Assembly: GCA_000934665.2 (NCBI GenBank)
Contig: KZ538203.1
Location: forward strand, 62,001 to 101,098
Direction of reading: 5' to 3'
DNA length: 39,098 nt
Origin: Catajapyx aquilonaris
Taxonomy: Eukaryota
Part shown: one piece after another, positions 1,299-31,700 of the stretch
Numbering within the stretch: position 1 is the stretch's first letter
Layout: each line of letters begins with the position of its first letter
The notes under the pieces: model-generated
Databases searched by the model: none
Seen by the model: only the letters and a program-made list of their open reading frames with translations
Told to the model about the DNA's origin: nothing
Position numbers and translations under genes: made by a program

Positions 1299-4200
1299 AA
1301 ATGAAGCAAGAGCTGGAAGATCTCATGGCCGATATTAAGAAAACTGCCAACAAAGTCCGTGCCAAGTTAAAGGGTAAGTGCAGAACTTGAATTTTAGGAA
1401 GGAACAGTCATAACATCAATAGGTCTCTATCTGACATGTGCTCTCAACAGTTATTGAGCAGAACATAGAGCAGGAAGAACACACCAACAAATCGTCAGCT
1501 GACTTGAGGATACGAAAGACCCAGCATTCGACATTGTCCCGGAAGTTTGTGGAGGTGATGACAGAGTACAATCGAACACAAACAGACTACAGAGAGAGGT
1601 GTAAGGGCAGAATTCAGCGGCAGTTGGAAATCAGTAAGTTTGGCCCATTATGCATGTAGATGGTCAGAGGATAGAAGATCAAATCTAACAAAAGTGGAAT
1701 GTTTTAGCTGGAAGAACAACCACGAATGAGGAGTTAGAAGAGATGTTAGAGCAAGGAAATCCAGCCGTTTTTACGCAAGGTGTAAGGAATCATTTTGGGA
1801 TTTTTATAAGAGAGCAGAAGTAGACCAGGAACTTGTAATGATGTAGCACTTACCTGCAGATCATAATGGACACGCAACAAGCAAGGCAAACACTAGCTGA
1901 CATTGAAGCAAGGCATGCTGACATCCTGAAGCTTGAAACGTCGATTAGGGAGCTACATGATATGTTCATGGATATGGCCATGTTGGTAGAAAGTCAGGTA
2001 AGTGACAAACATTATTATGAGAATTTTTACATAAACAAAATTCTGAGTAATACTTATTCAAAGATAAAATTTGTTTCAGTAATATTTAAGCTTAACGCAA
2101 AAAAAACTTGTCTTCATGAAAATCTATATAGATTAAGATATGGTTATTATTGATTTAAATGACAAAGTGCAAAGTACGTGTGTCCTGAGTTGTGTTGGTC
2201 TGAAATTTTTACGAAGGGTAATCCATGAAGATATATTTCATTGTTCGGAGAACAGCTTCATTAAAATACGCATGGCAATTCCAACCATTGGAAAATAAGT
2301 TGTTTTTTTTCCCCAAGAAATAATTTTGGGTGAGAAATAGATTTGACGAGAAACTTGTCTGGCAGCTCAGTATGTGGAAATCAATTTTTAACTCATCCTG
2401 TCCTGTCCGTATGAGAATTTTTCTGCTGGAGGCTCTTCGGTGTAATCTATATGAAATGATTTTTGAACGCATTTTGAAACCCCTATCCCCTGCATTTTAA
2501 CATTGTGTAGCTTTATTGCCCCTTCCCATCTCACACCAACCCCCAAAATTAATGAATTGGAAAGGCATAATTTGATGTTTTGAAGTGTTCTGATGGGGCA
2601 TGCAGTGGGTTTGACAGTTTGTTGTTTGTCATGGGAACATGTGTGAGCTTGAGGGTGTACTTACAGGAATATTAATACATCAGTATTTCTGCCTTATCCA
2701 ACATATTCGTGTCTAAAACAGACGAACCTGATTGTCTCTTCTTAGCAAGAACTGCCCTCTGGTACTGTACATGCAGAGTATGTCAACAGTGCCCACCCCT
2801 GATGTCTCCCAAACATATTTCCTGTATTTTTTTCTCCCTCAACTTGGTGGAATGGCTTTCTTGCATGAAGAGTCAAAGGAATTGCCGATTTCAAAAGAGT
2901 TGCTTTTGAAGCTTGCAAAGAAACCAAACTCTGCCTCCCAACTGTTTGGGTCATGTTACTAACTGAGATGTGTGCACCAAGTAACATAATTATTATCTAA
3001 TGTGGTGGTGGGTGTTGTTTTGCTACCAAATAAAATATGTGACTTGCAGTATTGAAATTTCTGCTTAAGCTTGGGTTGTCAAGTTATATGACAATGCATT
3101 TAGCTGCTTCCATTTATTGACAGTATGGAGGAAGTGAAAATGTGCACACATCTCTCGTTCTTCCTTCTCGCAGCTTTCATGCCTGGATGGCTGAGGTCTC
3201 ATGGTCATGTTTTCATGTACCAAGTAATTGTATGTTGTTTCCTCTCTTAATTCCCTTCCTGGCTGCCAGGGAGAAATGATAGATCGTATCGAGTATCACG
3301 TAGAGCACGCCGTAGACTATGTACAGACTGCAACTCAAGACACCAAGAAGGCACTCAAATATCAAAGTAAAGCTAGGCGGGTAAGTCATGATGCTCCAAG
3401 AGCTTTGTTTGGCTAACATTTTTTTCCCCCCTCTTTTTTGTTTCTCCTTTTCCGGAATTTTCCACTTCCACCTTGACACCACACTCTCACCAATGTCTCC
3501 ACTATTTGCACAACCTAATTGTTCCAACTCCAAACCTTCCATGGTTTTTCTGTGCCGCATTAATGTTTCTCTAAATGTTGTTTCTTCAACATGTGTCGTA
3601 CAATCCCATACTTTTGCACGTTGGGGGTAATTTTTTACTCTCTTGTGTGGGTTAATGTTTCCTTCCACATGTGATCAATGTGAATGTGTGTGGAACTGGT
3701 TTGTGTACCTGTGTGTGTACTTGTTAACAATGTTCTCCGTGTGTACCTGCATATGTATGAATGGTGTGACTGCCTTCTGGGTTGTTATGTTGTCTGCTGT
3801 GCAATCTGTCCTTCTTATCTCTCTGACCCAAACCCACTTGTACCCCCTCCACAAATTCCAAAATCCTCCAATGAACCCAAAACAACACCACAATTGGCCC
3901 AAATGGTTGTTTCCTGTCAACCCTGTATCCATAAATCCCCAAAAATACACAGGGAGAAATGATTGACAGGATAGAATATAATGTGGAGCAGTCAGTGGAT
4001 TACGTGGCATCTGCTAAGCAGAATACGAGAAAGGCTGTTAGATATCAAAGCAAAGCAAGGAAGGTAAGTTGATCAGCGAGGTGGAGGATTGGGTATTAAC
4101 CAGCTCATCTGTTGCGGTTATGGGATTCTTTAACATCAGCAGTGGTTCAACTTTAGGTTAAATGCTGTCCTATGCTTGTAGATGGTTGGGGATGAGTCAT

Positions 4201-7200
4201 GACAGATAAAATAATATGCTTGTGGCATGTGAAAATTTTTTTCTCTCATTTAGAATGACTATTGAGGCTCTATTTACCAATAATACGTGAGTTAAACTAA
4301 ATGTGACACAAGATTACTTGGAAACCATGACATTGCATGTAATCGTTATTGGGTTGTACATTTTGTCAATTGATGTGATTACGGTAGGAGTGAAATTCGG
4401 CTACAATTTATCTTCGAGACTCAGTGAGGTTGGAATTGTGTTACTTTCCAAGTTTACTACTGTGATACTGGTAGCATACTGAAAATGATGAGTACATACA
4501 AATAATGGAAGTGAATATTTACACAGCATAGTATGACTAGCCAGTTAACATGCATTGCGTCTTTGATTTCTTCTGATATTTTTGTTACCATTGACATCTT
4601 TGCGCCACCTGCAAAATACTTTTAAAATTCCCTAGCAATTCCAGATTTTACCATATGATTTTAGGATTAAAATGAATAAATCAGCCTCTGAAGATGAATC
4701 ATCACTAGGGGACTAATGAGACAGCTGAACATGCCATGTGTCATTGTTTATATGCTGTTGTAATATAATTCTGCAAGGGGATTTGCACATTTCTGCAGAG
4801 TTGACAAAAAATGCAGCGGTGACGCAAATTATATGGAAAAGTGAAGAAAGCAATGCAAAGGATCTTTTATTGGATTGGTTTTGTCACTGTGCACCATAAA
4901 GGCCCATTCACACAGGCCGTCGACGGTTTTGGTTTTTGGTCACGTTGACACCGTGGACCAATCATGACCCATGTAAACAAGCTCTAAACAATGGGTTGTG
5001 CTTGTTTACATGATTCACGATTGGTCCGCAGTGTCAACGCGACCAAAAACCAAAACTGTCGACGGCCTGTGTGAATGGGCCTTAATATATTGTTAATGGA
5101 GATCCTTTAACTCTCTGCTGTGTGATACTTGCTGGTAACAATTCATCTTTCTTGACATGACTCTTAATAATCTACAAAAGAGTAACTTGTCTTTCCATCA
5201 AGTGCAGCTTCAATTGTTGAGTAGGATAAAATGACAGAATGTCCTTGTCTGGCTGTCCTGAGACATCCAGCCAGTAGACCATGTTGTTGCAGTTCAGATG
5301 TTTTGTAATTTTACAAGCACTGCAGAAGTCAGTTTTAAAGTAAAAATTGCGAAAATATACCAGATTTTAAAATCATATGCTCAATATATCGCTGATGAAC
5401 TTGTAAATTAAAACATAATTAAAAAGTAGGTTTAGTTTTGGTTTAGGATCGACAGACCAAGTTCAGAAATTAAATCAAAAGTAACACAATTTTTTTACAA
5501 ATTGATCCAAATGATTCAATTTTGTGAAATATTTCTCCAGGTATTCCTTCAGGTTACAGCCAAACTCGACTGGAATTACCTGAAAGGTCTGAAGGTGACT
5601 TATAGGAAACCTAACTAAATTTTACATGCCCTTTACATATTTTGTGAAAGAGCATTTGCTATATCATGAAATTGATGGTTTCATTACATTGTTTTTCCAG
5701 TTTTATTGATTCATCCCCAACAAACTACTTTTAATAATGTAATAACAAATCCTCATCACCAAATAACTGTGCTTTCCTAACCATCTATAAGTCCTGAAAC
5801 TTTTGTAGCTTTAAAGACTTCTTGAAGTATATATGTATATGAATTACTGTATACTTACATACCTTTAAGGGTTCTGTTACTGACTGTAGCTTGTAACATC
5901 GCTATCCGTACTGTTGTCAAAGCATGTCGGTGTCACCAAGTGTTCTTCACTTTCACTGTTCATTGTTTGATGGGGTTCACCAATCTGGAAAAAGAAATGG
6001 GAGTGATAATATTACTGGTGTATGTGACCTGCAATAATATTTTAACAACATGGATGTTGACTTTGAAAAAAAAATAATTAATGTTTCCTTTGTATTTGAT
6101 TTTTTTGGAGGTATTCTCGATGATTTTGTTGGTACTGCAATATTACCTGATTGAATTGATGAGATTATAAAGGCTTTGATCAGTCCTGTGCTGAAATTTC
6201 CTCTTGAACATTATCGATTCAGTTGAGCCTTACTTTGTAGACTTTTCTTATTGCACAAATAGTAGTTATTATTGTGTTTATGATTGGTTTTGCAAAATTA
6301 ATATGAACCTGATAAGCAACACATTGGATCAAAATCAATATTAGCAGGCATTTACATTAACTGCATGCTTTCATCTGCTGCTTATTATTCTGCTTTGCAT
6401 GCTCAGCTGTAGAAGCTGGGCCACTTCGCAGCTAATTAGCAATTTGCGGTCTTAACTCATGCAGTTTATATTTTCTACTTGCAGAAAAAGATACTACTCA
6501 TTCTGTGCTTAGTGATTGTTCTGGCCATAATAGCAGTAGTAGTGGCAGTAAAATGTGCAAATGGATGCTAGTTAAAGCCACTCCTGACCATTATTGCATG
6601 AGTGCATGATATGGACCTTAGTGTTCACGGACTATTTGGTTTGTTCTTCTCCTTCCTTTATTTTTCGGAGTAAGTGTAAGGTAATTGAAAATTAGTTTTT
6701 CAACATGTAATGCAAAAGCCAAGGTGTAGAGAGATTCTTAACATGACTAAATATGCATGGCAAATAACACAGTACAGTTTGGTAATTAGTTGGAAAGTAT
6801 ATTTTGTTTTCTTGGTTTTAATTATGTTTTGTTTAATATCTTTTCTTTCCACAGAAAAAGATAATCATCATAATCTGCGTGCTGATTCTTGCCATCGTTA
6901 TAGTTTTGGCATTAGCCTTTGGCCTAAGCTAGCCCAAGACACCTGTGACATTTCCACTGGACACTCTTGCCAGAAGCAGTGTATCCATTCTTATCACTTG
7001 TCCAGGCAAAGGATGCATTGTTAAGAAAGACAACAAACATGTTCCCCAATCATATCAGAAGCGATTTATTGTCAGAATAATTTGCAGAATGTGTAATATT
7101 TCCCCCTTTGAGTAATTGGAATTTTGGCTGAAATGTAATGGGAATATTTATTATCTTTTATTTTTTACCCCACACAGAGCGTGGATTCAAAAATCCTTAT

Positions 7201-10200
7201 ATGAACTGTGAAAGTGCTGTTTTGCGATGAAAGCGATGATCAGAGTTTTGCTGCGTGTTAATGTTGGTATGACCCAAGTGATTGTTGTGTTGTAGATATT
7301 GTGTATTGCAAAAAGTAAGTTAATTCCTTATTCCCTTGTAGTATTACAGTTCAAACCCCCCCATGTTGCACATGGTTATGGTTTATTTTCCATAACTAGT
7401 GATCACTCCTTTAAGCCTGTGTCATTAATTCAATTGTGTTGGACCATCCGGATTCATCCTATCTTCATTGTTCCTGCAGGATATCGAAATATTGTGGTTG
7501 CAGAGAGCAGATAATTAGAGTTGGGTGGTCAGCATTATTCCTGTTATTTTTTAGCACATCCATATATTGCTGGTCAAGTATAGTGTATAAGCCCAGTTCT
7601 AATTACTGCTTGAGATTACTAAAGTTAACCATCCCTTGGCACTGAGGTCATTGTCTAGTCAGTGGTTTTGCGACGCGTCAATATTGCTTCTTCCGTGGAG
7701 CAAGTAATTTTGTCAGGTCTGGTGTAATTTCTTTGTGTCAACACTTTTAGGACATCAATAATATTAACATTATTACATGTGCAATCTTGAAGGAATCATG
7801 GTGTGGTAGCATTTAAAGGCAACTGCCCTTAAATGTTACCACATCATGATTCCTTCAAGATTGCACATGTAATACTGGATTTTTCGGTTTAATCAAATTC
7901 ATCAAGTTTTTGTATTTGAATATTGAGCCCTTGTGTACGTACTGTGTCATATTTAGAGCTGTACATGTTTTATGATTGCTGGCTTCTGAGGAGAAAATTT
8001 ATTGTCAGATATTGGCGCTGACCAGGTACCAGCATCGATGTTGTTAGCTTAGTAATCAATTTTGTTACAAACCATATTTTTTTCCCCTTCATTATAGTGC
8101 CTTGCTTCAATTGTTTACTTCTGAAAATATTCATTATGTGGTGGCTGAGCTGTTTTATAATAAGCTTAATTGAATGTTAAGTGGCATTACTGGACATCAT
8201 AGTAGACTGATCTAAACTCAATTTAAAGGCATTACTCTTATGTTGTGTAATACACAGCTGTCTGAGAAAGAGATTGTGAGATTTGCGTAATCAAAAGTAC
8301 AAAAAGAATTGAAAAGAATGATGCACTCATCATGCAGAAAATTATGAAGTGCAGAGAGTTATCCAGCTACTTGAGTTGCATCCCTTTTACAGATGGGGAT
8401 TAATGTGTCATTTCTTACATTGGGTTTGCATCAGAGAGAAAATTAACCAGCAGAAGCTAATTTTCAGATTGTAATATCATAGGAAAAGTATAACATGTGG
8501 GTGATGGCATGATGGGAGTTGCAGATGCAGTTTCTTCCACATTGATCTGCATAATTGGCTCTAGCAGTGCATAAAAAAGCTCTCTAAAAGCTATTGTAGC
8601 ATGAAAGAGAGGAGCATGTCATGTGAATTATCATCTTGAGCAGTCTAAATAAAATTCAGATGTTATTACTGGAGGTCCTTCAATGTATGTCAGTTGAGAC
8701 CTTCCGGAGGTGCTTCCCATGACTTGATAGGTGCTAAACGTGGATAGAGATCAATGCTTGTGAACTTGAGAAACAACCGTTTAAGAACATGTCAGATGTT
8801 TATCTAATGTGAAATAAGATTGGTCCTGGGAATATTTTCTTGAACATACATATACAATGCCCTTTTAGAGCCTTACATTCTGGCATGATTGTGTGGCTTG
8901 GATTTAAAAGTCATGGCAGTGCATGCTTTGAGGCACAAGTTTATTTTGCTAATTCACTGACGCATATTCCACCTTTCATGTACGATAAGTAGCATTACTG
9001 TAGATTAAAAACAAGAATAATGAAAAGGGGAAATAGTTGCTTATGTGTAAGCAGCTAATAATTCAATATCACCTTGTCCAGGCTGTTAGTAAACCAGTTC
9101 CAGTATGTTTAAAAAGTATGATTCAAAGAATTTCTCAGACGTCCAGAAGAATATAACCAAAAATAGGCCATTAAAATATATTAAGTTATCATTTCGAATG
9201 AATGATACAAATTGTAATGTACTGCATGACACAAAAGTCAGCTAAGATCCAGATTGCCTGTAATTCAGTATTTTATCCTGACTCAATTGTACCCAGAGTA
9301 AGAGAGCATCCTCTTTGCTGATTACATTCCATGTGCATGGATCCACTATGCACGTCACTTGTAGCAATGTTGCCTACTCGAATTATGAATGGACACACAA
9401 GTCTGCTGATTAGGATCTGAGGTAACTTTTGGGAGATCTGGTACTTTGTTATGGAGCAAGGAACATAATGCCTTAATAATAACATTACCATTAATAATAT
9501 CATGACGCATTTCAACGAAACCACCACATGAGGGAAAAATTAAACGAGAGGTTTACCAAAGAAGTATGGAGTAACGTGACACTGGCACAGACTATGAGCA
9601 AGTGCTTTTGCAGCAGATATGATATCTATAATGGGGAAAGCCTGTTAAAATACATAATGTAAATTAGTCTATCTTGNNNNNNNNNNNNNNNNGGGGGGGG
9701 GACTTTCTCAATAGTCTTTACAAATATGGTTGAACTATTCTAAACTACTTTGATCTGCATAGGGTTTCAAGTGTAGTGGAAGATATGCACCATCACATAC
9801 TAATGCTGATTTTTGTGGGAAAATTCTTAACAATGTTACGACCGAATAGTACTTTTGGAATGCAGTCATATGTTATGCAGTGGTTGTGTTGAGCAGTTTT
9901 CTGTCACTCCTCCTTCACCTAGAATGTCATCTGAGTGCTTACTGCCACACCATATAGATATCATATTGCAACTATACATTTTCAACTCGTGATGATAACT
10001 CAGAAAATTTGTCAGGATTTTCTGAAGTGTCACTGGAACCTTGGAGCTGCCATGTGTACAGTATTAATTCCGTGTCCAATGCACATTCCTAGCCCAGTCT
10101 CAGATATGTCTTAGGATCTGCAAATCAGGTTACTGTACCATTCCTTGTGGCCCTGTACTTACTGACGTGTGTGGTAATATACTGTGGACTAAGCTGCAGA

Positions 10201-12421
10201 CCAAAGGTTTGGTTCCTGGAAGCCAAAGACTGAGGCCAAGAGCTGCCATTAGTGATTAGTGGACAAGAATCCAAGAGATGAGACCTCAAGGGTAGCACAA
10301 AAAGAAAAACAATTTTAAGTAAGTTCAGAAGTGACCATACATTGATTAACATTTGTTTGCGAGTCGTCTAATGTATACTATGGGATGTACACATTACTAC
10401 TTTTGATTTCCTCAACTTCATTTATCTTGAGTGTTTGGCTTAATTGCTGTGCCATAGATGTTTCTCATCTGCGGCTGAATTTGGATGGTTACCTAGTTTT
10501 GGCGGCTTCAACAGTCTGCTTTTTTTTCCTGTATGGTTTTCCCCTTGTTCCCTCCCCAAACCCAACTCAATAAATGTACATGTGTATTCATATCAGTGCC
10601 ATTCCTTGTTGTTAAGTGTTAAGCGCTGCCACCTGTTTGCTCTACATTCACCTTCGTGTTGATTAATTTTAATCACCTGGCCGGCACCTGAAAACCTATT
10701 ACCAAGCGTGATTGTGTATGTGTGTGTGAGAATGAGAATATGTGGAAGGATCACATCCTTATAATGTATCTTTCTTCACAACTGTAGACATTGTCTTCCC
10801 TTCAAGTGATGTCAACGTGCTGCAGTGCATGAATATCAGCGTAACTTATTGTTTTTATTTGGGAGCTTATTGTGTATTAGGCTTTAATGTGGGGTTCCTG
10901 TACAGTACAGCATTTGAAGTGTACTAACAACACCTTTTCTTTCTTGATGTGTAAGTGTACTAACATATTGCATTGATGTCATTGTTCACCCTTCCAAAAC
11001 ACCTGCAATGCTAACCTGTAGAAGAAAATCATGATCATGGTCTGCCTCACAGTCTTGGGAATTGTTTTGGCCTCAACAATTGGAGGTTACCTCGGGTTAT
11101 TTTAAGTAAGTTCAGCAGCAACCACATCGTGATTGACATTTGCTTTAAATTATAGTGTAGATCAGCTATCTAAAAAATCATGATAAATTTTTATCAGCAT
11201 GATCTGCCTTTTTTTTCTGGTGGGTTTGAATACTGCATGTCGTTTATCCCACCTAAGCCCAATAAATTTAATAAGTTGAAGGGCTCTCAGTTAATTGGGA
11301 TTTGCTAATTAACATGGTGAGTGATAATACTTTTCATGATGTTCTGAAGAGTTGGTAAAAATTTTTGATCGCACAGATACAGAATTAATCCGACTATCCC
11401 TGCTAGTTTCGCTTGTATAATTATGCTTTCTAAAATATAATGCTTCCTGTATTTATTGTGCACAATGAGATGCTTTCTTTGTGCCTGGATTGGACCCATT
11501 TTTATGGATTGGGGTCTGCTTGTTTGCATGAATATGTCGTGTATATCTCTTCTCCAGTAATTCGATATGGAATCATGAGTGTTAAAGCATGCGCAATGTT
11601 GTCGTGTAATAGCCCTTGTCACTCGTTGTGCTCTGATCTTCATGTGAGGACTAATGTTTTTCTACTTTCACTACCATTACCTACTTTACCTCCTTTTATC
11701 AAAGAATGTGTAACCAGACCATGCGTGAATGTGCGAGAGAAAGAGAAAATTATGAATGGATTGACCCATTCAGGCTGCATGTGTTTAGACATTTATAGCG
11801 TATATTTAAGGTGGTATAAAAATGTCACAAAATAAGCATATGGATGACCTCTTGCCACAAGAAGAAAATGTGACAGTTTCTAACCAGTGCTTTCAAGCAC
11901 TGGATATTCTGGTATTGCGTAGGCACCAATTTATTTAACACCACAAGAAGTTAATAAAGCGATAAATTTTAAGTGGATCATTATACTTGATGCCTGAACT
12001 GCCAGTTACCTTGAGGGAAATTATCAAAACAATTTCATCTTTTGGTAGATTTGTGACATTTTTATTCACCCTAAGAAATTAATAAGTTTATTGTAGATTT
12101 TGCCTTTTTTTTTAACCAAGTTACTTGAACTTCAAGCAATGCATGTTCGACTTTTTTCTACTCTGATCCTTTCTTTATTGATAGTGTAGCCTGGATTAGT
12201 AGGATTTTAGATTCATGAAGAATACAGTTTTGAAACATATACTAACAAAACTGCTTCTTTGAAATGTGATGTATGATTAACCTTACTAACATACTGTATT
12301 GGTGTTGCTGTCCTCCAAAACCTGCAATGCTAACCTGTAGAAGAAAATCATGATCATGGTCTGCCTCGCAGTCTTGGGAGTTGTTTTGGCCTCAACAATC
12401 GGGGGTTACTTCGGGTTGTGA
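1299..12421 (+). CDS. Syx1A: Syntaxin-1A (plasma-membrane Qa-SNARE), 5'-partial, alternatively spliced. Constitutive exons 1299-1373, 1451-1633, 1708-1781, 1860-1997; then exon A 3270-3380 or exon B 3953-4063; then one TM exon (6485-6571, 6855-6932, 11022-11105 or 12341-12421)
   Basis: The spliced translation [165 protein letters not shown]...YQSKARR-KKIM... matches the syntaxin-1 Habc/SNARE/TM architecture. All junctions are GT-AG with consistent phase. The N-terminal exons lie upstream of the window. Confidence 0.97.
3270..3380 (+). CDS. Syx1A: Syntaxin alternative exon A, C-terminal half of SNARE motif: [37 protein letters not shown]
   Basis: 111 nt, phase 0/0, acceptor ...ggctgccag, donor gtaagt. 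The peptide resembles the canonical insect Syx1A sequence. Confidence 0.95.
3953..4063 (+). CDS. Syx1A: Syntaxin alternative exon B, duplicate of exon [38 protein letters not shown]
   Basis: Same length (111 nt) and phase as exon A, acceptor ...tacacag, donor gtaagt, open frame, 26/37 aa identical to exon A. Confidence 0.9.
4900..5082. mobile_element. Palindromic MITE, PIF/Harbinger (Tourist)-like, intronic
   Basis: 183-bp element that is almost entirely an inverted repeat (AGGCCCATTCACACAGGCCGTCGAC ... GTCGACGGCCTGTGTGAATGGGCCT), flanked by TAA at 4897-4899 and 5083-5085, the 3-bp TSD typical of Harbinger. Confidence 0.8.
6485..6571 (+). CDS. Syx1A: Syntaxin alternative TM exon T1: [28 protein letters not shown]
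   Basis: Polypyrimidine acceptor ttttctacttgcag, phase 0, starts KKI like syntaxin TM exons, hydrophobic helix, then stop. Confidence 0.85.
   Translation, partial: KKILLILCLVIVLAIIAVVVAVKCANGC
6855..6932 (+). CDS. Syx1A: Syntaxin alternative TM exon T2: [25 protein letters not shown]
   Basis: Strong acceptor cttttctttccacag, phase 0, KKI plus hydrophobic helix plus stop. Confidence 0.88.
   Translation, partial: KKIIIIICVLILAIVIVLALAFGLS
7771..7874. repeat. Near-perfect inverted repeat (two 51-nt arms, 2-nt spacer)
   Basis: Arm 7771-7821 is the reverse complement of 7824-7874 with only 3 differences. Confidence 0.92.
11022..11105 (+). CDS. Syx1A: Syntaxin alternative TM exon T3: [27 protein letters not shown]
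   Basis: Acceptor ctaacctgtag, phase 0. The peptide resembles the syntaxin-1 type TM (KKIMI..C..VLGIV.AST.GG). Confidence 0.92.
   Translation, partial: KKIMIMVCLTVLGIVLASTIGGYLGLF
12341..12421 (+). CDS. Syx1A: Syntaxin alternative TM exon T4: [26 protein letters not shown]
   Basis: Close duplicate of T3, including the upstream acceptor region (cctgcaatgctaacctgtag). Open frame to stop. Confidence 0.92.
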   Translation, partial: KKIMIMVCLAVLGVVLASTIGGYFGL

Positions 12422-14375
12422 GTCGACAACTATTTTTCTCCTGGATTCAGGTGCAGTGTCTCTGCTTTGTCTGCATGCATGTAGAGGTCAACATTTGACC
12501 ATGTCACTTTATAATTATCATATTATTATTCCAAAGTAAGGATTGTTTCTAGAAAAAAAAAGTTGGCAAAGTTTTACCCAAAAACTAATATAACCGCATG
12601 ATAGCACAGATCTCTAGCTACTAATTGACACAAACATGCTGTAGTATTAATCAGCATATACAGGGTCATCGAAAATGAACGCCTGGATTTTTAAATCCTA
12701 TTACTCGACCACTTGTGAACATATTTAAACGATTTAAGTTTTGAAATGCCAAGAAATGTTTGAAGTTTTGCTCTTACCTTAGTTTGTTTCAATATGGACT
12801 CCACAAAGAGGTAGATGTCTGTGGCTCCAACCACTACACTGCTGTGCCTTCAATTGGCTTACACAACTGCTTTGATCAACATGATGTTAGTGTGGAGCAG
12901 AAGATAAAGATCAGTGTAATAATGTGGCTATGTTGACATTTGAGGAAAAAGAATTCAAAAATTTTAAGTGGTCAAACAGTACTTACTATTGGAATGTGGT
13001 AATATAATTATTATCATACAAATCATGAATGGCAAAACAGGGAAAGGTGGAACAAGTAACAGGTTCTACAACAAAGTCTTAATATTGAAGTAATGTTGAG
13101 ATATGGCTGTAATGTCACGGGACACCAGTTAAAGGCAAAGTGGTCCGCAACTGGTAGTCTGTGCACTTGTGCTGAGATATACTTCGGGTAGATAGGTTTA
13201 TGAGTTTTAGTTTATTTAGTTTTAGAATACTCAACTTTCCCTGATTTGCACACATTTATGGTAAATAAGCTGACAAGATATTACTTCAGAATATGATAAT
13301 TCTAATATTTCTTGTGCATTAATTTTTACTATGTGCACTATAGTGAGCACAAAGACTTAGACAACTGGTTGCAGGTATGTCTTGTTTTACTGGATGAGCC
13401 AAGGTAACTAAGGCCGTCAGGCATAAGTGGTGTTCAGGTGCGACATTGGCTCCCACCTGCTGCTGATATTTTTTGATGTACCATCCTTGTGACTATCTTT
13501 TTGCTCATTATAGTACACTTTTAGGAAACTGGAATATTAAAATTTAAATGCATTTTTATTTTCCATGTGCTCTCCAACTGCATGATTACAAGTGTTGAAA
13601 AAAATTTGACACAGCTTCCAAAACAATTTATTGAATTAGCATGGTTTAAGTTCTTACTAGAAACTAAAGTAGCTGCATGCCCACATAGTCTCTCTGGTTT
13701 TCGCAGAGTGTGTTACAAAAACTAACTATGCTTTTCTCCTTCCAGTTTATGTACTTATTACAAGATATCACTGGACTTATTACCTCCTGTGGTTTTCTTA
13801 GTGTCCATGAAGCAGCCAAGCCTATTTCATCACATCAGTAGCTAGGGGAAAATAATTATAAGAAAAAATATGGGCTTTTAGCCCTTGTATCAAAGGGCTG
13901 TGTCCAGCAGTTTCTTGCTTATTTATCTCATCATCATCAAGGCAGACTTGGTTGCAAGCCTACCAGCAAGAAAGAAAATAACACACACAAAAAAAAATTG
14001 TTTGGCCAACTGTCGCATTGCAATAGTCATTTGACCCCAAATGTGTCTGCTAACATAGAAAATGATTTTGTAGCCTTGGACTCATAAATTTGGTGTTCAT
14101 TGCGGTGAGAATCTATACTTATTAAGTTCCAACATGCCAGGAATTGGATAATACTCTTTCATGAGGTGCAGTTATTCATTGTGTGTATGAGCAGAAGGTA
14201 CATAAATATAAATATTATATATAATATACATATACATAGGTGTCTACCTTTAAGTTGTTTCCAACATCATGAACCATGTAAATTTTATTATATGTATTAT
14301 AATGTGCAGTCCTATTGTATGTGATAAGAAAAAAATGAAGTAGGTTTATTTTAGTGGTGGTGTTGGGGACTATTG

Positions 14376-14399: not shown

Positions 14400-17300
14400 A
14401 ATAACTCAGCTTTAAAACAGCTTCTTTGAAAATGCAATTTCAAACTTTTTCCACAAAAAGGATATGTATTGGTCTTAGTAACCAGAGCTGACTAAAATGG
14501 CTTGAAGTGTGGGAAAAGAACTCCCAACCTTCTCAACATGTCCAGTTTGGGGGGGGNNNNNNNNNGGGGGGGGGAGAGACCTTCAATATCATTTGACTTA
14601 TGGCCACAATATTCTAGTCACCATCATGCCAAAGTGGTAACTGGACTGTTGACAATGGAACATTAGAAAATCGAAGTTTGAAATTTTAATGCAATATGTA
14701 AACTAGTGTAATATGCTAATGTGGTCATCTAATGTTCCAAGCTGTTGTAAAGAATTCATATTTTAAGGATCCAATGTACTCACTTGTAGAGACTTGAATG
14801 TAAGCTTTCTCTAGTCATTGGCAAGCATATCTGAAGAAGAAAAAAAAAACTACTGAGGAGGATTGCTGTCACAATAATTTTCCATTCTGCAAGTGAGTAG
14901 TGGATTTACACTATTATGTGTGTGGTCATGCAGCATGTATGTGGTGAAAGAATTTTTGTAGGATTGAGAGGAAAGGTGCAGATTTTTTCCCCCACCACTC
15001 CTCGAGCAAAAAAGAAAAAAGAAAAAAAAATGCAATTGTTTGTTTAGTTTGAATGTTGCAAAGCTGTAGGAGGAATTTGGGTGTTGCATTCTAATCCGTA
15101 GCAATAACAAATTATACATATGTTAGAGTCAAGGTTGACATTAAAAGACAGACAAAAATGCTGTAGAGTTGCACATTGAATTCTCTTTTGTTATTGTTTG
15201 AACCGTTAAGAGATTGTTATTACTAGACATACGCGTTGTATGTATAAATACCTACGTCTTGGATAACTTTGTACTGTTAGGGGGATCATGAAGTACTGTA
15301 GATATTTATTCTCCTGAACCTGTCTTTCAGTTAGGCTACAAGTGTATAAATCATCCCAGCCCTTGTGCAACTTATGCATAGAAATGCCTCTTCATGTCGT
15401 TCATAACCTGCAGTATATAACGGGGGATTTGCAAAAGGGGATGAAGTGCACTGCATTTCCAAACAAAAGGGATAATAAACAGGAGACAATCTGCTTGGAA
15501 ATTCAGTTTGGGCATGAAATATAGCCTCCACAGTTTACTGTGCTGAAACGACCAATTTTAGGATCATCGAACTTATGCAAATCTTCCAAGTGTCAGAACA
15601 TGGCCCCCTTCTCCCAAGTCGTTGTGTGATTAAAAAATGAAAAAGCGAAAAAAATATACATTGCTACAAGTGACATTGTTTCATGTTATCAATTGTCACT
15701 AATCAGATAAGTATAATAATATATACAGTATATGCTAGGCACGTGTTGGTTGCTTGGTCAATTTTGAAAGAAGATTAAAAAGTGCGCTTTCGTTACCATT
15801 GGGAACTCATAGTGAGCATTGCCCCGAGTGCTTTTACTGTGGACTGTTGCATTACAACTTTCTTCATGTATTGAGGAAGTATTAGAAGAAAAAGTTCTGA
15901 AGAGAAGGGAAACGGATCAGAAGAAACAGAAGAGTCCAGGAGTCGAGAGGATAACTACTGCACGAATAATTATGGTGTCCTATACTTTTTGTCTTTTACC
16001 AGTTGGATTATAGATATGTAGTGAGAACTGTTGTACACCAGGCATCCACTTTTAGCCCATCCCCCCCCAAAGAATTTTTGAGTCTTGGTGTTGTTGAAAA
16101 AAAAATAAGACAGAGACAACTTATACTCCATAGTGCTTGAAACATTGCAGGCATGTGCCCGGAGCACTTCTGATATCTAAGATGGAAATAAAAAAGGAAG
16201 GAAAATCCGTATCTAAACCGATAGGAAGTGGTTAGCGCCTGAGTGCAGCTTGAGATACGCACGTTTTTGGGCGCATCTTCTTGTATCACTCTCACCTGTA
16301 ATTAAGCCGGTTTCCCAAATCTAGGTGAGGGTGAGGTAACAAATTACAGTGAATGAATTTTTGAGAAAAATAATAAAACAAAAAAAAATATATACATAAA
16401 TTTTCTCTCACTGCACTGCTCTAGTTCTCAGTGGTCAATGCGTGGGCTTTTTGTAAAGTTTGTTGGAAAAACTGCCAAGAGATTTGTGATGTTAGGATGC
16501 ACATATTCCACATGGGTTTGTATAAAGACAAATCTCCAGTAGCAGATAACTGAACTAAATAAGCACAATTCACATCCAAGTCTTTGTTGTTTAATACACA
16601 ATAGTTTTTCAGTGCTTATTAGCACAATCTGGGAAGGATTAACCAAATGAAAAGAGTGGAAGATTTTGTACACGGTTTTGTTATGTGTAATAATTTTTCA
16701 TTTGCTAGAGGTGCAGGATTCCCACTAAAACCTTGGCAATTCCAATACTGTAAACAATGAAGCAGTAAAAAGTGAAATTGATGTTCGCCTACTTGGAAGA
16801 GCAAAGGGAACTTGGCAGAGTTTTTATAATTAATGAAACTCTTGAATCGTCTTATGTGTGTAACAAAGTATATAAGTGTGAGCACAAGCCTTCAGAAAAA
16901 AATAAATAAAAATAAATAAGTGGGTTTGGGAAGCAGTGCCCAAGTCCACTTTGTTACCAGATTGAATCACGACGGGAGGTGTGAAAAAGATTGAGATAAA
17001 AACAAAAATGGTGTAGAAAAGGGGCCAATCTGAAGGTCTGGCCAATCACTGAGACCCAGAGTCAGTTTAGCAGCAGTATCACCATGCAATAATGATGATA
17101 ATAAATAGTGATATGTGTGCTATTAAATAAGGGAACAGCGTGCACTAGTTGAAAATTAAATTGGTGCACTGAGAAACAACAGAGGTCGATGACAATATTT
17201 TATTGGTTCAACATGCTTTAGTAAATGTTGAGGCTTTGTAAATCCAGATTGTGTGCATTTTTTAATACTTGAGTGGCCTTGAAATATTTTTTCCCCCATT

Positions 17301-22761: not shown

Positions 22762-23801
22762 TTATGCCTGTATCAAGGCTGCCAGGTGCTGACAAATGTC
22801 TTTAGCTGATGGCCTCTCATCTGGAACCTCACTAGTACAGCAGTAGAACAGCTCAATGACAGGCTTGTAGCTATCATCAAAAGAGTGGTCTGGAAGGGCT
22901 GGCCTTGTCCCAATCCTCTTCTCAAACTCTTGCTCCTCAACCTCCAGCCTCTCAGTGATTGACTCCTCAGTGGCCGATTCCCAACTCATATCATCATTGT
23001 TCACATGTGGTGGATTCAGCGACATCATCTCCCACAGGACCAACCCATACGAAAATATATCCGTCTTGTGAGTGACAACGCCATTTTCGCTCACCGCCTC
23101 CTTAGCTGACCAGCAACGAGTTCCAATGTAGATCTCAGTCGGATCACTCACAATACCCTTCTCATTGAGTTGCAGACTAACCCCAAAGTCACACAACTTG
23201 GCCGCCTCAAACTCGCCTGCAATCAGTATGTTAGCACTCTTGATATCACCATGCAGCAAGCGCTTCTCATCATGCAGGTAGCTAAGCGCCAACGCAACAT
23301 CATATGCCACTTTTAGGATGTATCCTGCCAGGAATGGCCCGCCATCCTCCTCATTGCGCTTCTCGACCAGATCACCCAGGGAAACATGCCCATGCTCCAT
23401 AGCGAGACAGGCATCACCTGATATGTTCTTCCCAAATGCCCGGAAGCCAATTATGTTTGGATGCTTGAGCTCCTTCAGAATTTCAGCCTCCAAGCGCAGA
23501 CGAGATGCAGCTGAGCGGCTGCACTGATACTTGGAGTTCACCTTCTTCAAAGCCCACGGGGATTTGTACTGGCAGGGGGAGCGGGGAGACCGCTCCATCA
23601 GGAACACATCCACACCTGTAAAAGTATACATGAAGGTAGAGTCCAGCTCATTGTTGCAGCAAATCGGGTCATACCAGTTCCATATCCTATTTTCTTCAGG
23701 AAAGGTGTTGGCGGCAGACGCATAATGGGCGTCGATGGAGGCTTGTCAGACACATCGCGACGTCGGTTGGTCGGTTCAGGGCTCTGGAACACATCCGCCA
23801 T
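22762..23801 (-). CDS. PBK: PBK/TOPK (PDZ-binding, lymphokine-activated killer T-cell-originated) mitotic kinase, about 326 aa. Exons 23801-23675 and 23615-22762
   Basis: A 59-nt GT-AG intron joins MADVFQSP...PPTPFLKKIGYGTG to VDVFLMERSPR...SPWALKK, the PBK-type N-lobe. Kinase motifs HGDIKSANIL, LCDFGVS, YIGT..W..KE and DIFSYGLVLWEM are present. Candidate polyA signals are TTTATT on + at 22635-22640 and 22737-22742. Confidence 0.93.
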
Positions 23802-24200: not shown

Positions 24201-24611
24201 CAACGGTATCAGCTGGATGGGAGATTAGATATTTGGAGCATTGCAGTGTGACCTCAAACAGAATGCTGTAGAATTTGGTACCGCAAATACACAGGTAAGG
24301 CAGATGTAGTACGCAGGTGTTGATAGGCAAGTCATACCGTGGGGGTATTAACCTAAATGTCGCATGTTTACATAGAGATTTTGATAATAGAGGACCCACT
24401 TTAAGGGCCTTAATAACCGCACCGTTGACTACAAGCCGTTCACAGGCTACTCTATCACACTATTACACCCATATCAGGTACCCCTAAGGCCAACTGTTGC
24501 AAGGTGCAACCAGCATGTATTAATGATATTACTAACCAGCATTGTGTGCTGATGATATTTACATGTATCACTTTCCATCAACAGGAACGAGTGGTGACAG
24601 GCAGTCCAACC

Positions 24612-27600
24612 ATGCTGCTTTTGTTTGCACTACTTGTCCCAGCGTCGTCCCAGCAGTTGACGGGAGGGATGCTGTACCCAAGAGCATCTGAGTCTAGAGA
24701 ACTTGTGTCCCTAGATGGAGTTTGGGACTTCAGGGCCAGTCCTGACAATGACCAATCCGAGGGTTTTAGGGAATCGTGGTTCAAAAAAAGATTGGCTCAG
24801 ACAGGTGAAGTTCAGCCTATGCCAGTGCCTTCTAGTTACAATGATGTGACCCAAAATGCCAGTCTGCGTGACTACATTGGTTGGGTGTGGTATGATCGAG
24901 AGTTCTACATTCCTGCTAGGTGGAAGCAAGATGGGAGGGTTGTCTTGCGCTTTGGAAGTGTTCATTACTACACCATGGTGGTAAGTGCTGGTGTATGCAG
25001 GGGTAGTTTAGATGTCAAATACCCCCTTGGTTTTCTTGCAGTGGGTGAATGGAATATCAGCAGTGAACCACAGTGGAGGCCACTTGCCTTTTGAGGCAGA
25101 TGTAACCAAACTTCTGCATGCGAATTGTAGCAACTTGGTCACAGTAGCTGTCAACAACACTCTCACCACCTACACCATACCCCAAGGAGAGACAATTACT
25201 CATCCGAACAGTTCAAGGTACAGTATCAGTAATAATTTTGAACTGCTGAAACCCTACATGCCTGACCGTGTTAATACGACTGAGAATCCTATGGCATTAA
25301 TTCCTCATTCCCTGTGCTTAATTTCCTGCAGATATCCGCCAGGTTTTCATGCGCAAGAATACAGCTTTGACTTTTTCAATTATGCTGGAATTCATCGTCC
25401 TGTGCACCTGTACACCACACCCAACACCTACATTGAAGATATTACTGTCACAACTGAAATTCTGGGCGAAACCGCAGGTAATTCTGAATCATTGAGCACA
25501 CTTACAGTTGGTATTGTTTTTGGCCAGGTGTTATTCATTATAGAGTGGATTACAAGTCTGAATCAGCAGAGCAGCAAGTTGTTTGTTATGTCGAGCTGTT
25601 CAACAAGAAACGAATCATGGTGGGAACTGCAAAAGGATGCAAGAGTTTGGTTAAGGTGGCAAATGCCACTTTTTGGTGGCCATTTCAGATGAGTGAAGAG
25701 CCAGGATATTTGTATACTTTGAAGGTAAATAATTAAATTGGGGATAAGAATCTTATTTCTTCAGGTGCTGGGAACAGGCTTGTATTGTTACATCAGGAGA
25801 AGAAAAGCCTCAGGTCATTGTGATTCCGTGTTTGAAATTTCTTGACATTAATCCAAGTTTCAGTATTTCCATCGACTTTATTTTTGCTTGATTGGGGCCA
25901 TGGTAAATTTTACTTATGTCATGACTTGCTCATGCTGTGTAATGCAGGATGCACATTTTCACATTTACTTGAACAAGGGTAAGCCATCAGTACACTTGGG
26001 GTGAAAACATAAATTTTCTTCGTCTTGCAGGTTAATGTGGTGAGCTCCAATGGCATGGATGTGTACAGACTGCCAGTTGGGATTCGGTATGTCAGTTGGA
26101 ATAAAACTGGGATTTACATCAATTCAAGGCCTTTCTATTTTCGTGGATTTGGACGCCATGAGGACTCAGATGTGAGTATTTTTCTTGGGTAATTGATGTT
26201 GATATATGATAACCTGGAGGGGCGACACGGTGGCAGAGTGGTTATCGCCACAGCCTACCATCTCTAAGGTCCCGAGTTCGATCCCCGGGTCGAGCAGAGG
26301 ATACTTATGTGGATAGAGTTTCAATGTGTTCTCTCCGTGTTCGAGTGGGTTTTCTCGGGGTTCTCCCTTTTCCTCCCGCAATCAAAATCCATCACGTGCA
26401 GGCAATGATTAAAGTCGGTTCACAAAAAGAAGATCCCCTAAGAGGCCCAAGGTCTATCACGGGGTATCCATTATTATATGATTGCTACTTGATCCAATTC
26501 TAATAATTTTTGAAAATCACATTACAGATCAGAGGCAAAGGATTAGACCTCCCATTAGTTATCAAAGACTACAACCTCATCAAGTGGGTAGGAGCTAATT
26601 CCTACCGTACCTCACACTACCCATACGCAGAAGAAATCATGGATCAGGCAGACCAGCAAGGGATAGTCATAATTGATGAGTGCCCTGCTGTTGACCTCAG
26701 GTAATGAACACCATAATAATGTTGAACAGGATTTGAGTCACAATGTCGCTGACCAAAACATAATCTTCCCATCCTTACAATGGGCATCATTACAGTCTGG
26801 ATTGAATTTTTTAGTGTCTTCGATCAAAAGATGCTGAAGAACCACGTCCATGTGATGACTGAGTTAATTCAAAGGGACAAGAATAGGCCAAGTGTGGTAA
26901 TGTGGTCATTAGCAAATGAACCTAGGTCATCTAAAAAGGAGGCCAAGGATTATTTCAGGTAAAATCAGTATCAGCAATCACTGCCTAGCACAACCACTAA
27001 CAAGCACTTCTCACTAGTAACCTGACTTCTGTGGTGAGGAGTTTAGATCACACCAGAATTGTTTCACTGGTCATCAATGCTGATGTTTCTACTGATCAAG
27101 CAGTAGGTTGCTGCATGTTTTTAAATTTATTTTTTAATGTCCGTATTGCTTGCGCTAGGCATACTCCACCCTGCATGATCTGTGTTTAATGGGCTGTCTT
27201 CCTGTAGTCAGCTCGTTTCATATGTACACCAACTGGATTCAGGTCGTCCTGTGACTGCTGCACTGTCTGGTGGTGTTAGTTCTGACAATGCTGTATGTAC
27301 TGCATGTGCACTTCTCTGAAATGAATTAGTGTTGAACAAAGCTTCATAATGGTGTGGAACAAACAAATGTCTTTTTTTTTTCCAGGCAGCCTTTGTTGAC
27401 ATAATATGTGTGAATAGGTACTTTTCATGGTACAGTGACACAGGCCATCTGGAAGTAGTAAGGAGGCAGGTTGTCAGTGAATATACTGAATGGCATGAAA
27501 AGCATGGAAAACTTGTCATGATCTCAGAATATGGAGCTGACACCCTAGCTGGGATGCACATGGTGAGTTGGGTATTTATTTTTATTATCTTCACGAGTAA

Positions 27601-28053
27601 TAATTCTATGTATTTGTATTTTAGGACCCACCATTTGTTTGGACTGAGGACTATCAGGTGGCAATGATGTCAGAGTATTTCCAAGCATTTGATGAGCTGC
27701 GTCATGCAGGATTTTTTGTTGGGGAGATGATCTGGAATTTTGCGGACTTTGCTACAGCTCAAGGTAATTTAATTTTGATACAAATTTATTCAGTTCATAT
27801 TATTTCTTTTGTGCACTTATTAATTTTTTGTTATTTTTATTTCCAATTTTTCCTCCCTGTTTCTTGCTCTCATTTATTATTTTTGAAAGCTGTTACACGT
27901 GTAGTGGGAAACAAAAAGGGTATATTTACAAGGCAACGGCAGCCCAAAGCTTCGGCTCATTTCTTACGAGCTCGGTATCACCAGCTGGCTGAAGAGATAG
28001 ATGGGTTTAAGGACCTGAAATACCGCAGCAGAGTTTATTGCCCCAGAGTGTAA
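24612..28053 (+). CDS. GUSB: Beta-glucuronidase (GH2) paralog 1, about 636 aa. Exons 24612-24980, 25042-25217, 25332-25477, 25528-25724, 26031-26171, 26528-26700, 26815-26958, [27018-27102 or 27208-27292], 27386-27562, 27625-27763, 27890-28053
   Basis: Signal peptide, then [60 protein letters not shown], acid/base WSLANEP, NRYFSWY, nucleophile SEYGAD, WNFADF and [14 protein letters not shown]. With one copy of exon 8 the exons sum to 1911 nt. AATAAA at 28088-28093. Confidence 0.96.
26219..26475 (+). mobile_element. tRNA-derived SINE with V-domain-like core, in glucuronidase 1 intron 5
   Basis: Pol III A box TGGCAGAGTGG (26231-26241) and B box GTTCGATCC (26276-26284), followed by ...GTGTTCTCTCCGTGTTCGAGTGGGTTTTCTCGGGGTTCTCCCTTTTCCTCCC, which resembles the V-SINE central domain. 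The 3' end is approximate. Confidence 0.75.
27018..27102 (+). CDS. GUSB: Glucuronidase 1 alternative exon 8a: (S)[28 protein letters not shown]
   Basis: 85 nt, acceptor cttctcactag, donor gtaggt, phase 2/0. Homologous to the GH2 segment ...LDPSRPVTFV...D. Confidence 0.85.
27208..27292 (+). CDS. GUSB: Glucuronidase 1 alternative exon 8b: (S)[28 protein letters not shown]
   Basis: 85 nt, acceptor gtcttcctgtag, donor gtatgt, same phase as 8a, contains LD..RPVT. Confidence 0.88.
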
Positions 28054-28744: not shown

Positions 28745-31700
28745 ATGTTGTGGTTAACACTTCTGCTGCTGGTTGCGTCTTGCAGTGCAGAACTGACTGG
28801 TGGGATACTGTACCCAAGGGAATCTGAGTCTAGGGAGGTCCGCTCTTTGGATGGAATATGGGATTTCAGACTGGCAGACAGGCAGCATCCACAGGTTGGA
28901 TTCAGGGAGAAGTGGTACAAACAGAGGCTGGCTGAGGTGAGATAGACTTTTAGGAATTTGGTTGGAAGAGATGGAAATGTCTGTTTGTTTGTTTGTAGAC
29001 TGGTCCAGTGCAGGGCATGCCAGTGCCTAGCAGTTACAACGATGTGACACAAGATGCAAGCATCCGAGACCACATTGGCTGGGCTTGGTATGATAGAGAA
29101 TTTTTTGTGCCACAGCGATGGTCTCAGGACAAGCAGAGAGTATTCTTACGTTTTGGAAGTGCCCACTACAATACTGAAGTAGTAAGTAGAGCACAATGCA
29201 ATATTCATATTATTTGACAATATTTACCTCAAATATTTCCTGCAGTGGGTCAACTCAGTGTCAGCTGTGAATCACACAGGCGGACACCTCCCATTTGTGG
29301 CGGAAGTGACGAAGCTGCTTAACTATGGTTCAAACAACAGAATTACTGTGGCCATCAACAATACACTAACACCGCACACAGTGCCTCAAGGTCATATTGT
29401 GCATGAGAGCAACACAAAACGGTATGGAAAATTTTATTTTAAAAATGTAATCACAGCTATGTGTGGCTAATTATTTTGGAATTCACTTTGTTGAAGGTAT
29501 CCACCAGGATATTTTGTACAAACGCTGAACTTTGACTTCTTCAACTATGCTGGAATCCACCGACCTGTCTACCTGTACACTACACCTGAGAATTATATTG
29601 ATGACATAACTGTCACCACAGACATTCTCAATGCAACCACAGCTGTGATCAACTACCATATGTCAGTAAAAGGTCCTGGAAGAAATTCTGTTCACCAACC
29701 AGGCTGCCAGGTGACCATCTATGATCGAGACATGAGATTAGTTGCAGAGAGCAATTTAGCACCAGAAGGTAAGATAGTGGTCACCAATGCTCATTTCTGG
29801 TGGCCTTATCAAATGCATCATGAGCCTGCCTACCTCTACACGATGGAAGTAAGAATCATGGTGTTATAAATCGCAACATTAAATTTTGACTTACAACATT
29901 TGTTTCAGTTTCGTGTGATTACCTCAGTTACTAGTGATGTCTACCGGATGCCAGTTGGCATTAGAACAGTAAGCTGGACATCAACTGAATTCTTCATAAA
30001 TGGGCAACCATTTTACTTCAGAGGATTTGGACGTCATGAGGATTCTGATGTAAGTTTTTGTGAAACAGCTACTTCATTATGAAATGTTGCGCAACACTTT
30101 TCCGGTTATTGTCAACACATTATTCGAGGACATTGTTGACTGTGAAGAGTTGTCTGGGAGTCGGTGCGCCGCATCACCAAAAAGTGGTTCCTGGAGGGCC
30201 TGGAGAGGTTAACTAGTACCAGTGCCAGTGCTTTCGGCTCCAGGAGGATTCTATATACAATATGTGCCTATTTTTCGACCTGCACGGGGGCTGTGTCTGT
30301 GGCAAAAAACAAACTGTCAAATCATTTTGGTACCGTCCTCGTATTAGGAACACACTGGGGCCTGCAAATTGGCTTATACCAAAGGAAGGAAACACAGAAG
30401 ATATAATTATGTATTTTGCAGATGTTCCTGTAGTGGAACATGGGTTACTTTTTTAAATGCCTTATGTGAGTCATTTTTCCGCAGATTCGGGGTAAAGGTG
30501 TGGATAATGCGTTGCTAATTAAGGACTACAATTTGCTGAAATGGATTGGTGCTAACTCCTATCGAACTTCACATTACCCATATGCAGAAGAGATTTTAGA
30601 TCAGGCTGATAAACAAGGGATTGTCATTATCAATGAAAGTCCTGCCATTGGTCTGGAGTATGTTGTGATGACTGAATCCATAGGGATATCACAAAATAAA
30701 ATGCTACTTTCTTTTGCAGTGGATTTGATGACCTTCTATTGAAACAACACAAGCGAGTGATGGCAGAGTTTGTGCGGAGGGACAAGAACAGGCCTAGTGT
30801 TGTCATGTGGTCTATTGGAAATGAGCCGCAATCACAGAAGAATGCATCAGGACCTTATTTCAAGTAGGACAATAAGAAAGCTTTTTTCTCCCTTACTCAA
30901 TATTCAGAGTTCATCATTGGCACCATCTGTTGTGCTCTAGTCACGCCTTTTCAAAAATGTTATGCCAGGGCGGAAGGGAGTGACAATTCATACACTCTTG
31001 ACCTGTGTTTATTTTTAACTAGAAATCTATACAGTATATTTGCCCAGCATGGCCAATTTTTCCCTAGGGATAGAAACAGTGCGCCATGCAAAGTAGCACT
31101 GAGTAACACTTATTACTACTCATTCCTATCCTTGTTAGGTCTGTGGTTGAATACACCAAGACACTTGACACAACACGACCTGTGACTCTTGTCATCAGTG
31201 CGGGATACCAAGTGGACCATGGTGTAAGCTGCATGAGGGTCCTTTCTGGTAGAATTTTCAATGTAAATTTACAACATTTCAGGCACAATATATGGATGTA
31301 GTTAGCATCAACCGTTATTTCTCATGGTATTCTGACACAGGCCATTTAGAAGTCATACAGCCCCAAACGTTGGATGAAGTTCACCAGTGGCATCATAAGT
31401 TTGGCAAGCCTGTCATTATGACAGAATATGGAGCTGGTACAGTGGCTGGAATGCATATGGTAATGAAGACCTAGTTGATTTTGATATCCAATGTTAGCTT
31501 GCCTGTCTGTTGTTAGGACCCGCCGTTTGTGTGGACGGAAGATTACGAAGTGGCACTGCTTCTGGAGAACTTCAAGGCATTTGATGTGCTGCGACACAAC
31601 TCATCATCTGGATTCATTGGGGAGATGATTTGGAATTTTGCAGATTTTGCAGTGCCGCAAGGTTTGTTGTTATCAGGAGGTTGGAAGGAGGGAGTAGAGT

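Follow-up and report, generated by a model that had tools for sequence, protein, structure and literature searches.

A probable syntaxin-1A gene of Catajapyx aquilonaris with two alternative SNARE exons and four alternative membrane-anchor exons

How many different C-termini can a single arthropod syntaxin gene supply? The question is raised by a 39,098-nt stretch of the genome of Catajapyx aquilonaris (contig KZ538203.1 of assembly GCA_000934665.2, positions 62,001 to 101,098; hereafter the window). As read from its sequence, the plus strand probably carries a syntaxin-1A (Qa-SNARE) gene of the arthropod type, of which the window covers the 3' half; in it, two exons for the C-terminal half of the SNARE motif (A and B) are followed by four exons (T1 to T4) that each encode a whole transmembrane (TM) anchor. 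In exocytosis, syntaxin-1 acts as the central SNARE of the plasma membrane.

The initial annotation had described four phase-0 exons, each with a Lys-Lys start, a Cys at position 8, a TM helix and a stop, and the four peptides do lie on the plus strand exactly as it quoted them, with an AG directly 5' of each. When all six frames were searched for KKI followed by at least three hydrophobic residues there were five matches, four being T1 to T4 and the fifth, on the minus strand at 5496, stopping after 8 residues. We also ran a general filter for tail anchors (a basic start, then 17 uncharged hydrophobic residues and a stop) over the six frames of the whole window; it returned exactly four matches, again T1 to T4 and all preceded by AG. 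Across 200 dinucleotide-preserving shuffles this filter averaged 0.025 matches (maximum 1), and in none of the 200 did it return an AG-preceded one; what was observed is real and far beyond chance. In a stop-to-stop listing they show as short open reading frames of 43, 31, 27 and 26 aa. All four are compatible in phase with the donors of both A (..AGG CGG followed by GTAAGT, at 3380) and B (..AGG AAG followed by GTAAGT, at 4063), both phase 0, and each supplies a tail anchor behind a polybasic linker: ..KARR or ..KARK, then KK, 20-24 uncharged residues and a stop.

Upstream of the anchors, orthology to annotated syntaxin-1A was found over two constitutive exons, at 98-100% identity to insect syntaxin-1A for a 61-aa query (the 60 residues of exon 1451-1633 and one adjoining codon) and at 91-96% for the 46-aa exon 1860-1997, whose best matches, a spider sequence and contigs, reached 96%. 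The comparisons place the lineage no more finely than as an arthropod of pancrustacean-like type, exon A being identical to that of hexapods. Pfam matches were scored on single exons, with cutoffs of 26.7 bits for PF00804 and 26.8 bits for PF05739; the Syntaxin N-terminal (Habc) domain exceeds its cutoff in exon 1451-1633, and the SNARE motif does so in both A and B (Table 1). The N-terminal syntaxin exons, together with the first part of the Habc domain, lie upstream, outside the window. An AG acceptor precedes all ten mapped exons and a GTAAG donor follows all six non-terminal ones; GTAAGT occurs 16 times on the plus strand of the window, 10 times in its first 13 kb, and five of those 10 are mapped donors. 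The last constitutive exon ends in a Gln (..MLVESQ) which we take to be the zero-layer Gln of syntaxin-1, and A and B would therefore cover layers +1 to +8 together with the beginning of the polybasic linker. The 329 proteins returned by three protein searches included none of the same species, and the window-specific strings that we tested occurred in none of them.

Exons A and B are of equal length and phase and share 74 of 111 nucleotides and 26 of 37 residues. A second tandem SNARE exon is also found in crustacean and insect gene models. Exon B of the window is about 80% identical to echinoderm and hemichordate sequences, versus 64% to an Armadillidium model; insect B exons are strongly diverged, and the one described here stands near the single exon of non-arthropods. 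The RefSeq X-isoforms of relatives carry either A or B, and both are concatenated in six other, automatically built models of our set (P0123, P0021, P0043, P0041, P0049 and P0284). Public models in which A and B are strung together come from Armadillidium, Ephemera, Ladona, Bemisia, Acromyrmex, Dendroctonus and Amphibalanus, and in a Strigamia model two syntaxin units are fused in one protein; P0124 and P0002 are listed alongside the six proteins above. Such concatenated and fused models are likely annotation errors caused by the exon layout.

Table 1. Predicted exons of the syntaxin-1A gene and their splice signals (positions within the window; the pyrimidine fraction covers acceptor positions -22 to -3, and the AG-free stretch lies upstream of the acceptor)
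Feature	Positions	Strand	Pyrimidine fraction	AG-free stretch	Remarks
Constitutive syntaxin exon	1299..1373	+			AG acceptor, GTAAGT donor; weak PF00804 match, 14.3 bits, below cutoff
Constitutive exon, part of Habc (..RIQRQLEI)	1451..1633	+			PF00804, 60.7 bits
Constitutive exon	1708..1781	+			donor GTAAGG; PF00804, 17.5 bits, below cutoff
Constitutive exon, N-terminal half of SNARE motif, ends ..MLVESQ	1860..1997	+			91-96% identity to arthropod syntaxin-1A
Exon A, C-terminal half of SNARE motif	3270..3380	+	0.75	45 nt	111 nt, phase 0-0, GTAAGT donor; PF05739, 54 bits; identical to hexapod exon A
Exon B, C-terminal half of SNARE motif	3953..4063	+	0.45	>98 nt	111 nt, phase 0-0, GTAAGT donor; PF05739, 52.7 bits
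T1, aliphatic TM anchor	6485..6571	+	0.70	20 nt	AG-preceded, phase 0; luminal tail KCANGC and stop
T2, aliphatic TM anchor	6855..6932	+	0.80 (highest of the four anchors)	57 nt	AG-preceded, phase 0; ends ..AFGLS and stop
T3 acceptor region	10958..11021	+			TACTAAC at 10958-10964, ..ctaacctgtag; homologous to T4 acceptor region
T3, neuronal-type TM anchor	11022..11105	+	0.60	66 nt	AG-preceded, phase 0; stop followed directly by GTAAGT at 11106
T4 acceptor region	12284..12340	+			TACTAAC at 12284-12290; no AG in 98 nt upstream
T4, neuronal-type TM anchor	12341..12421	+	0.55	>98 nt	AG-preceded, phase 0; stop without a donor after it

The four anchors fall into two classes. Among 202 C-terminal tails taken from the 329 proteins, T4 matches the anchor of Penaeus japonicus isoforms X3/X4 at 24 of 26 residues and T3 that of Odontomachus isoform X2 at 22 of 26; counted by hand, T4 also agrees with the tail of a vertebrate STX1B (P0199) at 19 of 26 residues, which bears out the earlier assignment of T3 and T4 to an STX1-like class. 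T1 and T2 had been called aliphatic, and both do belong to a fast-evolving, aliphatic class of anchors. The T2 ending ..LAFGLS is like ..AFGLS of Octopus and ..GLSVGLS of nemerteans and hemichordates, and the KCANGC tail of T1 had a counterpart in none of the 329 proteins. The order of exons in an ant-like metagenome contig (L033) suggests that T1 corresponds to an insect anchor which we label M and T2 to one which we label L, although identities of about 11-13 of 25 residues do not decide this.

A scan of metagenome contigs with the opening eight codons of the anchor of neuronal type (N-type) gave 76 loci, 23 of them with an N-type anchor exon (19 preceded by AG, three intronless after SNARE coding sequence and thus cDNA-like, and one preceded by AA); 18 of the 23 were examined, five short ones being left out. 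The window's order, aliphatic anchors first and neuronal-type last, is kept in two contigs, the ant-like L033 (M-, L- and N-type exons at 2451, 4979 and 8453) and the branchiopod-like L029 (the exon for the N-terminal half of the SNARE motif, one exon for its C-terminal half, an aliphatic anchor and an N-type anchor). The N-type exon varies between species at many positions, mostly third-codon ones as read by eye, which would fit selection on the N-type peptide. Twelve of the contigs (L005, L015, L018, L019, L031, L038, L045, L047, L051, L056, L065 and L070) share the same insect-type N-type exon, and these are animal DNA in metagenome assemblies. In most of the twelve the upstream branch region reads ..TTTTACTAACATAATG.. 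and in three ..TTTTACTGACATAATG.., resembling TACTAACATA upstream of T3 and T4.

How, then, might the two SNARE exons and the four anchors be combined? The combinatorial use proposed for the locus has an annotated counterpart in relatives, since RefSeq models of bees, ants, bugs, thrips and shrimps pair two SNARE exons with up to three TM exons. Models of Bombus vosnesenskii combine A with a neuronal-type anchor, A with M and B with M; that of Bombus impatiens is A with L; Temnothorax nylanderi has A with M, N or L; Eufriesea mexicana has A with N, A with L and B with L; and Cimex lectularius has A with N, A or B with an aliphatic anchor, and one form without either SNARE exon. In Frankliniella and Gryllus the same aliphatic anchor is modelled with A or with B, and Penaeus japonicus has A with N, B with N and B with an aliphatic anchor. 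The suggestion of the initial annotation that A might be coupled to T3/T4 and B to T1/T2 does not survive this comparison: A is joined to an aliphatic anchor in Bombus, Temnothorax, Cimex and Frankliniella, and B to a neuronal-type anchor in isoform X4 of Penaeus japonicus. Because the gene models of relatives mix both, A does not seem tied to neuronal-type anchors, nor B to aliphatic ones. The eight isoforms given by A or B with T1 to T4 would be an upper bound only.

A feature that sets the window apart is its tandem pair of neuronal-type anchors. T3 and T4 agree at 72 of 77 aligned coding bases, and the likeness extends over about 65 nt of the intron upstream, TACTAAC motif and acceptor included; beyond this common block their flanks are unalignable. 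They differ at six codons, three non-synonymous (T/A, I/V, L/F) and three synonymous, and their last residues and stops differ as well. In addition, a 47-nt direct repeat (81% identity) links 10312-10358 with 11099-11145, the latter running from the last 7 bases of T3 through the GTAAGT donor into 34 nt of intron. TTTTAA followed by GTAAGT is found in the upstream copy too, without a TM frame in front. We considered whether this upstream copy might be a third N-type copy, and this was ruled out, as it matches just the last 7 bases of T3 and the downstream intron and has no TM coding; it may be the relic of an older exon copy or the end of an extra non-coding exon. Because the end of T3 and its intron recur there, more than one duplication must have taken place in the local history.

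Could these four frames be something other than a full set of working alternative exons? Their shortness (25-28 codons) and the many Ile, Leu and Phe codons of AT-rich DNA might suggest chance hydrophobic frames in introns or in the 3' untranslated region (UTR). However, four were observed where no shuffle yielded even one AG-preceded tail anchor, all four lie on the coding strand, in phase and downstream of the SNARE exons, and their classes and order agree with those of other species; chance is effectively refuted. It would also be very improbable for T3 and T4 to be an assembly artefact, one exon doubled by mis-joined haplotypes or reads. A run of N at 9677-9692, in the T2-T3 intron, marks the region as scaffolded, but there is no N between T3 and T4 and their flanks are unrelated, so assembly duplication is unlikely; moreover, the common stretch covers only about 170 nt, where a haplotype duplication would give long near-identical flanks, and the two exons are separated by 5 substitutions and by differing stop contexts.

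It is a different matter whether all four anchors are used. Only part of the set might be functional, with T4 and one aliphatic exon at work and T3, as a young T4 duplicate, and/or T1 being rarely or never spliced pseudo-exons, a possibility that we regard as unlikely. Several observations weigh on its side or against a fully working set. A second N-type exon was found in none of the 10 metagenome loci with at least 1.4 kb on each side, which represent about two lineages only, and T3 may therefore be a young, little-used copy. T3 and T4 differ at just 5 of the 77 aligned coding bases, synonymous and non-synonymous codon changes being equal in number, and three of each cannot show selection on both exons. 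T3 looks patchwork, because its last 7 bases and the downstream 40 nt belong to the separate local repeat devoid of TM coding, and the KCANGC tail of T1 is unmatched. The expectation that each TM exon would be conserved held at the level of sequence for T3 and T4, as it did for exon order; nothing close to T1 or T2 was found among the 202 tails (at best 13 and 15 of 25 residues, respectively), and they are therefore conserved as a class and by position, not in sequence. The RefSeq X-isoforms are computed models in which pairings of distant exons may be inferred, not observed, and it is by analogy that we infer neuronal use of the T3/T4 anchors and non-neuronal secretion for T1/T2. Against a partial set, in otherwise unalignable surroundings T3 has kept its frame intact together with Cys8, the acceptor AG, the TACTAAC motif and 66 nt free of AG, and a perfect GTAAGT stands exactly behind its stop; the acceptor of T1 is good and its anchor complete. 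Hymenoptera and decapods have three annotated TM classes, and a set of more than two working anchors is thus normal.

If the four anchors are indeed alternative exons behind A and B, the pre-mRNA would take either A or B after the ..VESQ exon, to complete the SNARE motif, and one of four phase-0 acceptors would then supply KK, a Cys of the palmitoylatable type, the TM helix and the stop. The choice of anchor could be made by regulated selection of the 3' splice site. Pyrimidine tracts are stronger at the acceptors of T1, T2 and A; at those of T3, T4 and B they are weak and come with long AG-free zones, the TACTAAC motif lying 52-59 nt upstream of T3 and T4. It may be that the proximal, pyrimidine-rich acceptors of T1 and T2 act as the default and that the distal weak ones need activation, or repression of the proximal ones. 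Inverted-repeat scans for RNA pairing of the docking/selector type, which would make exon choice exclusive, gave no convincing candidate, the sole one being a hairpin at the acceptor of B. Here (3907-3976) the intron upstream of B can fold back on the acceptor and on the opening 24 nt of the exon at -20.4 kcal/mol (z -2.18; 4 of 200 shuffles fold equally well), and the hairpin could mask the weak acceptor.

Rbfox-type TGCATG sites are dense around the anchors, with 17 of the 35 sites in the window at 6362-13674, which is 19% of its length (binomial 7e-5, for a region chosen after looking). Two stand just after the T1 stop (6595 and 6603), and a double site lies 51 nt after the T4 stop (12472 and 12476). 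TGCATG was not consistently present near the N-type exon in related loci, there being none within 400 nt in the ant-like locus, L026, L029, L054 and L001, and the density around the anchor exons is a lead only.

Donor motifs behind the stops raise a further possibility. Besides the GTAAGT at 11106, the first base after the T3 stop, there are others at 6670 (99 nt past the T1 stop) and 7315 (383 nt past the T2 stop). The 283 nt that separate T1 from T2 contain neither AATAAA nor ATTAAA; poly(A) hexamers first appear at 8648, 9004 and 9170 after T2, at 11261 and 11953 after T3, and from 13536 onwards after T4, which is probably the last exon. Because of the GTAAGT motifs after the T3 and T1 stops and the positions of these hexamers, we tentatively consider two modules, T1 to T2 and T3 to T4, in which the stop of the upstream cassette would override the terminal exon. 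An optional upstream cassette with a GTAAGT donor would thus stand before a terminal exon carrying the 3' UTR, giving four anchors and two 3' UTRs. A donor directly after the N-type stop was found in none of the 10 metagenome loci with flanks of at least 1.4 kb, about two lineages by their peptides.

Exchange of these parts of a SNARE is familiar from vertebrates, where alternative exons swap the SNARE C-terminal half and/or the anchor in STX3A/3B, in forms of STX2 and in SNAP-25 (exons 5a/5b). Those are paralogous genes with two forms each. A close published likeness is unc-64 of Caenorhabditis elegans, also a single syntaxin-1 gene with alternative anchor exons: according to the published text (PMC4946901), alternative last exons swap the C-terminal hydrophobic anchor, 8a being neuronal and 8b non-neuronal, the choice is set by binding of UNC-75/CELF in the intervening intron, and, for locomotion, one anchor is not equivalent to the other. 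As described in that text, the unc-64 anchors differ in the last 14 residues only and no alternative SNARE exon is mentioned (PMC4946901), unlike the window with its four whole-anchor exons behind two alternative exons for the C-terminal half of the SNARE motif. Of the precedents offered by the initial annotation, that of unc-64 is thus documented, and for vertebrates syntaxin-2 isoforms with different anchors are mentioned (PMC4946901) and 'Syntaxin 3b (splice form of STX3 gene)' is listed in a Table 1 (PMC11536687).

Our keyword searches of a paper library returned no published account of alternative anchor or SNARE exons in arthropod syntaxins, only database models; one study names syntaxin 1a solely among differentiated genes of a sweat bee (PMC12853126). 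The models themselves are extensive. According to them the same alternative-exon system is present across Pancrustacea, and its TM part also in echinoderms, hemichordates, molluscs and nemerteans. Insect and crustacean syntaxin-1A models (Bombus, Apis, Temnothorax, Eufriesea, Cimex, Frankliniella, Penaeus japonicus) likewise have A and B, a neuronal-type anchor and one or two aliphatic ones; the window differs from them in its two N-type exons in tandem and in the donor behind the stop of the first. Syntaxin-1-like models of echinoderms, hemichordates, molluscs and nemerteans have several anchors per gene, STX1-like (..GG.FG) and aliphatic (..GLSVGL or ..AFGLS), with three in Diadema antillarum, two in Lineus, ..GGVFGGK and ..GLSVGLA in isoforms X1/X2 of Ptychodera flava, and ..GGVFGG and ..GLAFGLS in Octopus. 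Unlike the window, these models offer no choice between A and B, because all isoforms share one and the same C-terminal half of the SNARE motif. The exon layout is therefore already annotated across arthropods and is not new; new at this locus are the tandem neuronal-type exons, the donor abutting the T3 stop, the Cys-bearing luminal tail of T1 and an exon B near non-arthropod sequence. A broader evolutionary reading, which we hold to be somewhat doubtful, is that the syntaxin-1 gene of the bilaterian ancestor already had an STX1-like (..STIGG.FG) and an aliphatic (..GLS) exon, kept as splice choices in arthropods, hemichordates, molluscs and nemerteans and as paralogues in vertebrates, and here extended to the modules T1 to T2 and T3 to T4 crossed with A and B.

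The rest of the window adds some further features. Two near-perfect intronic hairpin inverted repeats, at 4896-5086 (87-nt arms, 91%, with a 17-nt loop) and 7768-7877 (54-nt arms, 93%, with a 2-nt loop), look like small foldback insertions resembling miniature inverted-repeat transposable elements. On the minus strand a single 327-codon frame at 22765-23745, situated where the GC content of the window is highest (about 50%), encodes a protein kinase domain (PF00069, 127.5 bits). It is followed on the plus strand by two genes in tandem, each with several exons, at about 24429-28050 and about 28800-31471; PF02837, PF00703 and PF02836 matches on successive exons assign them to glycoside hydrolase family 2 (beta-glucuronidase-like). 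Apart from the run in the T2-T3 intron, N occurs at 14557-14565, 34671 and 36719 (27 N in total).

In summary, the main value of this locus is as a pointer to a widespread, unstudied arthropod splicing system and to its frequent mis-annotation. The latter is a warning for annotation, as several public models wrongly join A and B in one protein or lack the short exons for the anchors. If the modular reading is true, two nested modules combined with the choice of A or B would tune fusion and membrane sorting per cell type. A single arthropod gene in which the anchor can be exchanged as well as the fusion-driving half of the SNARE motif would be a compact natural experiment on what those parts do.

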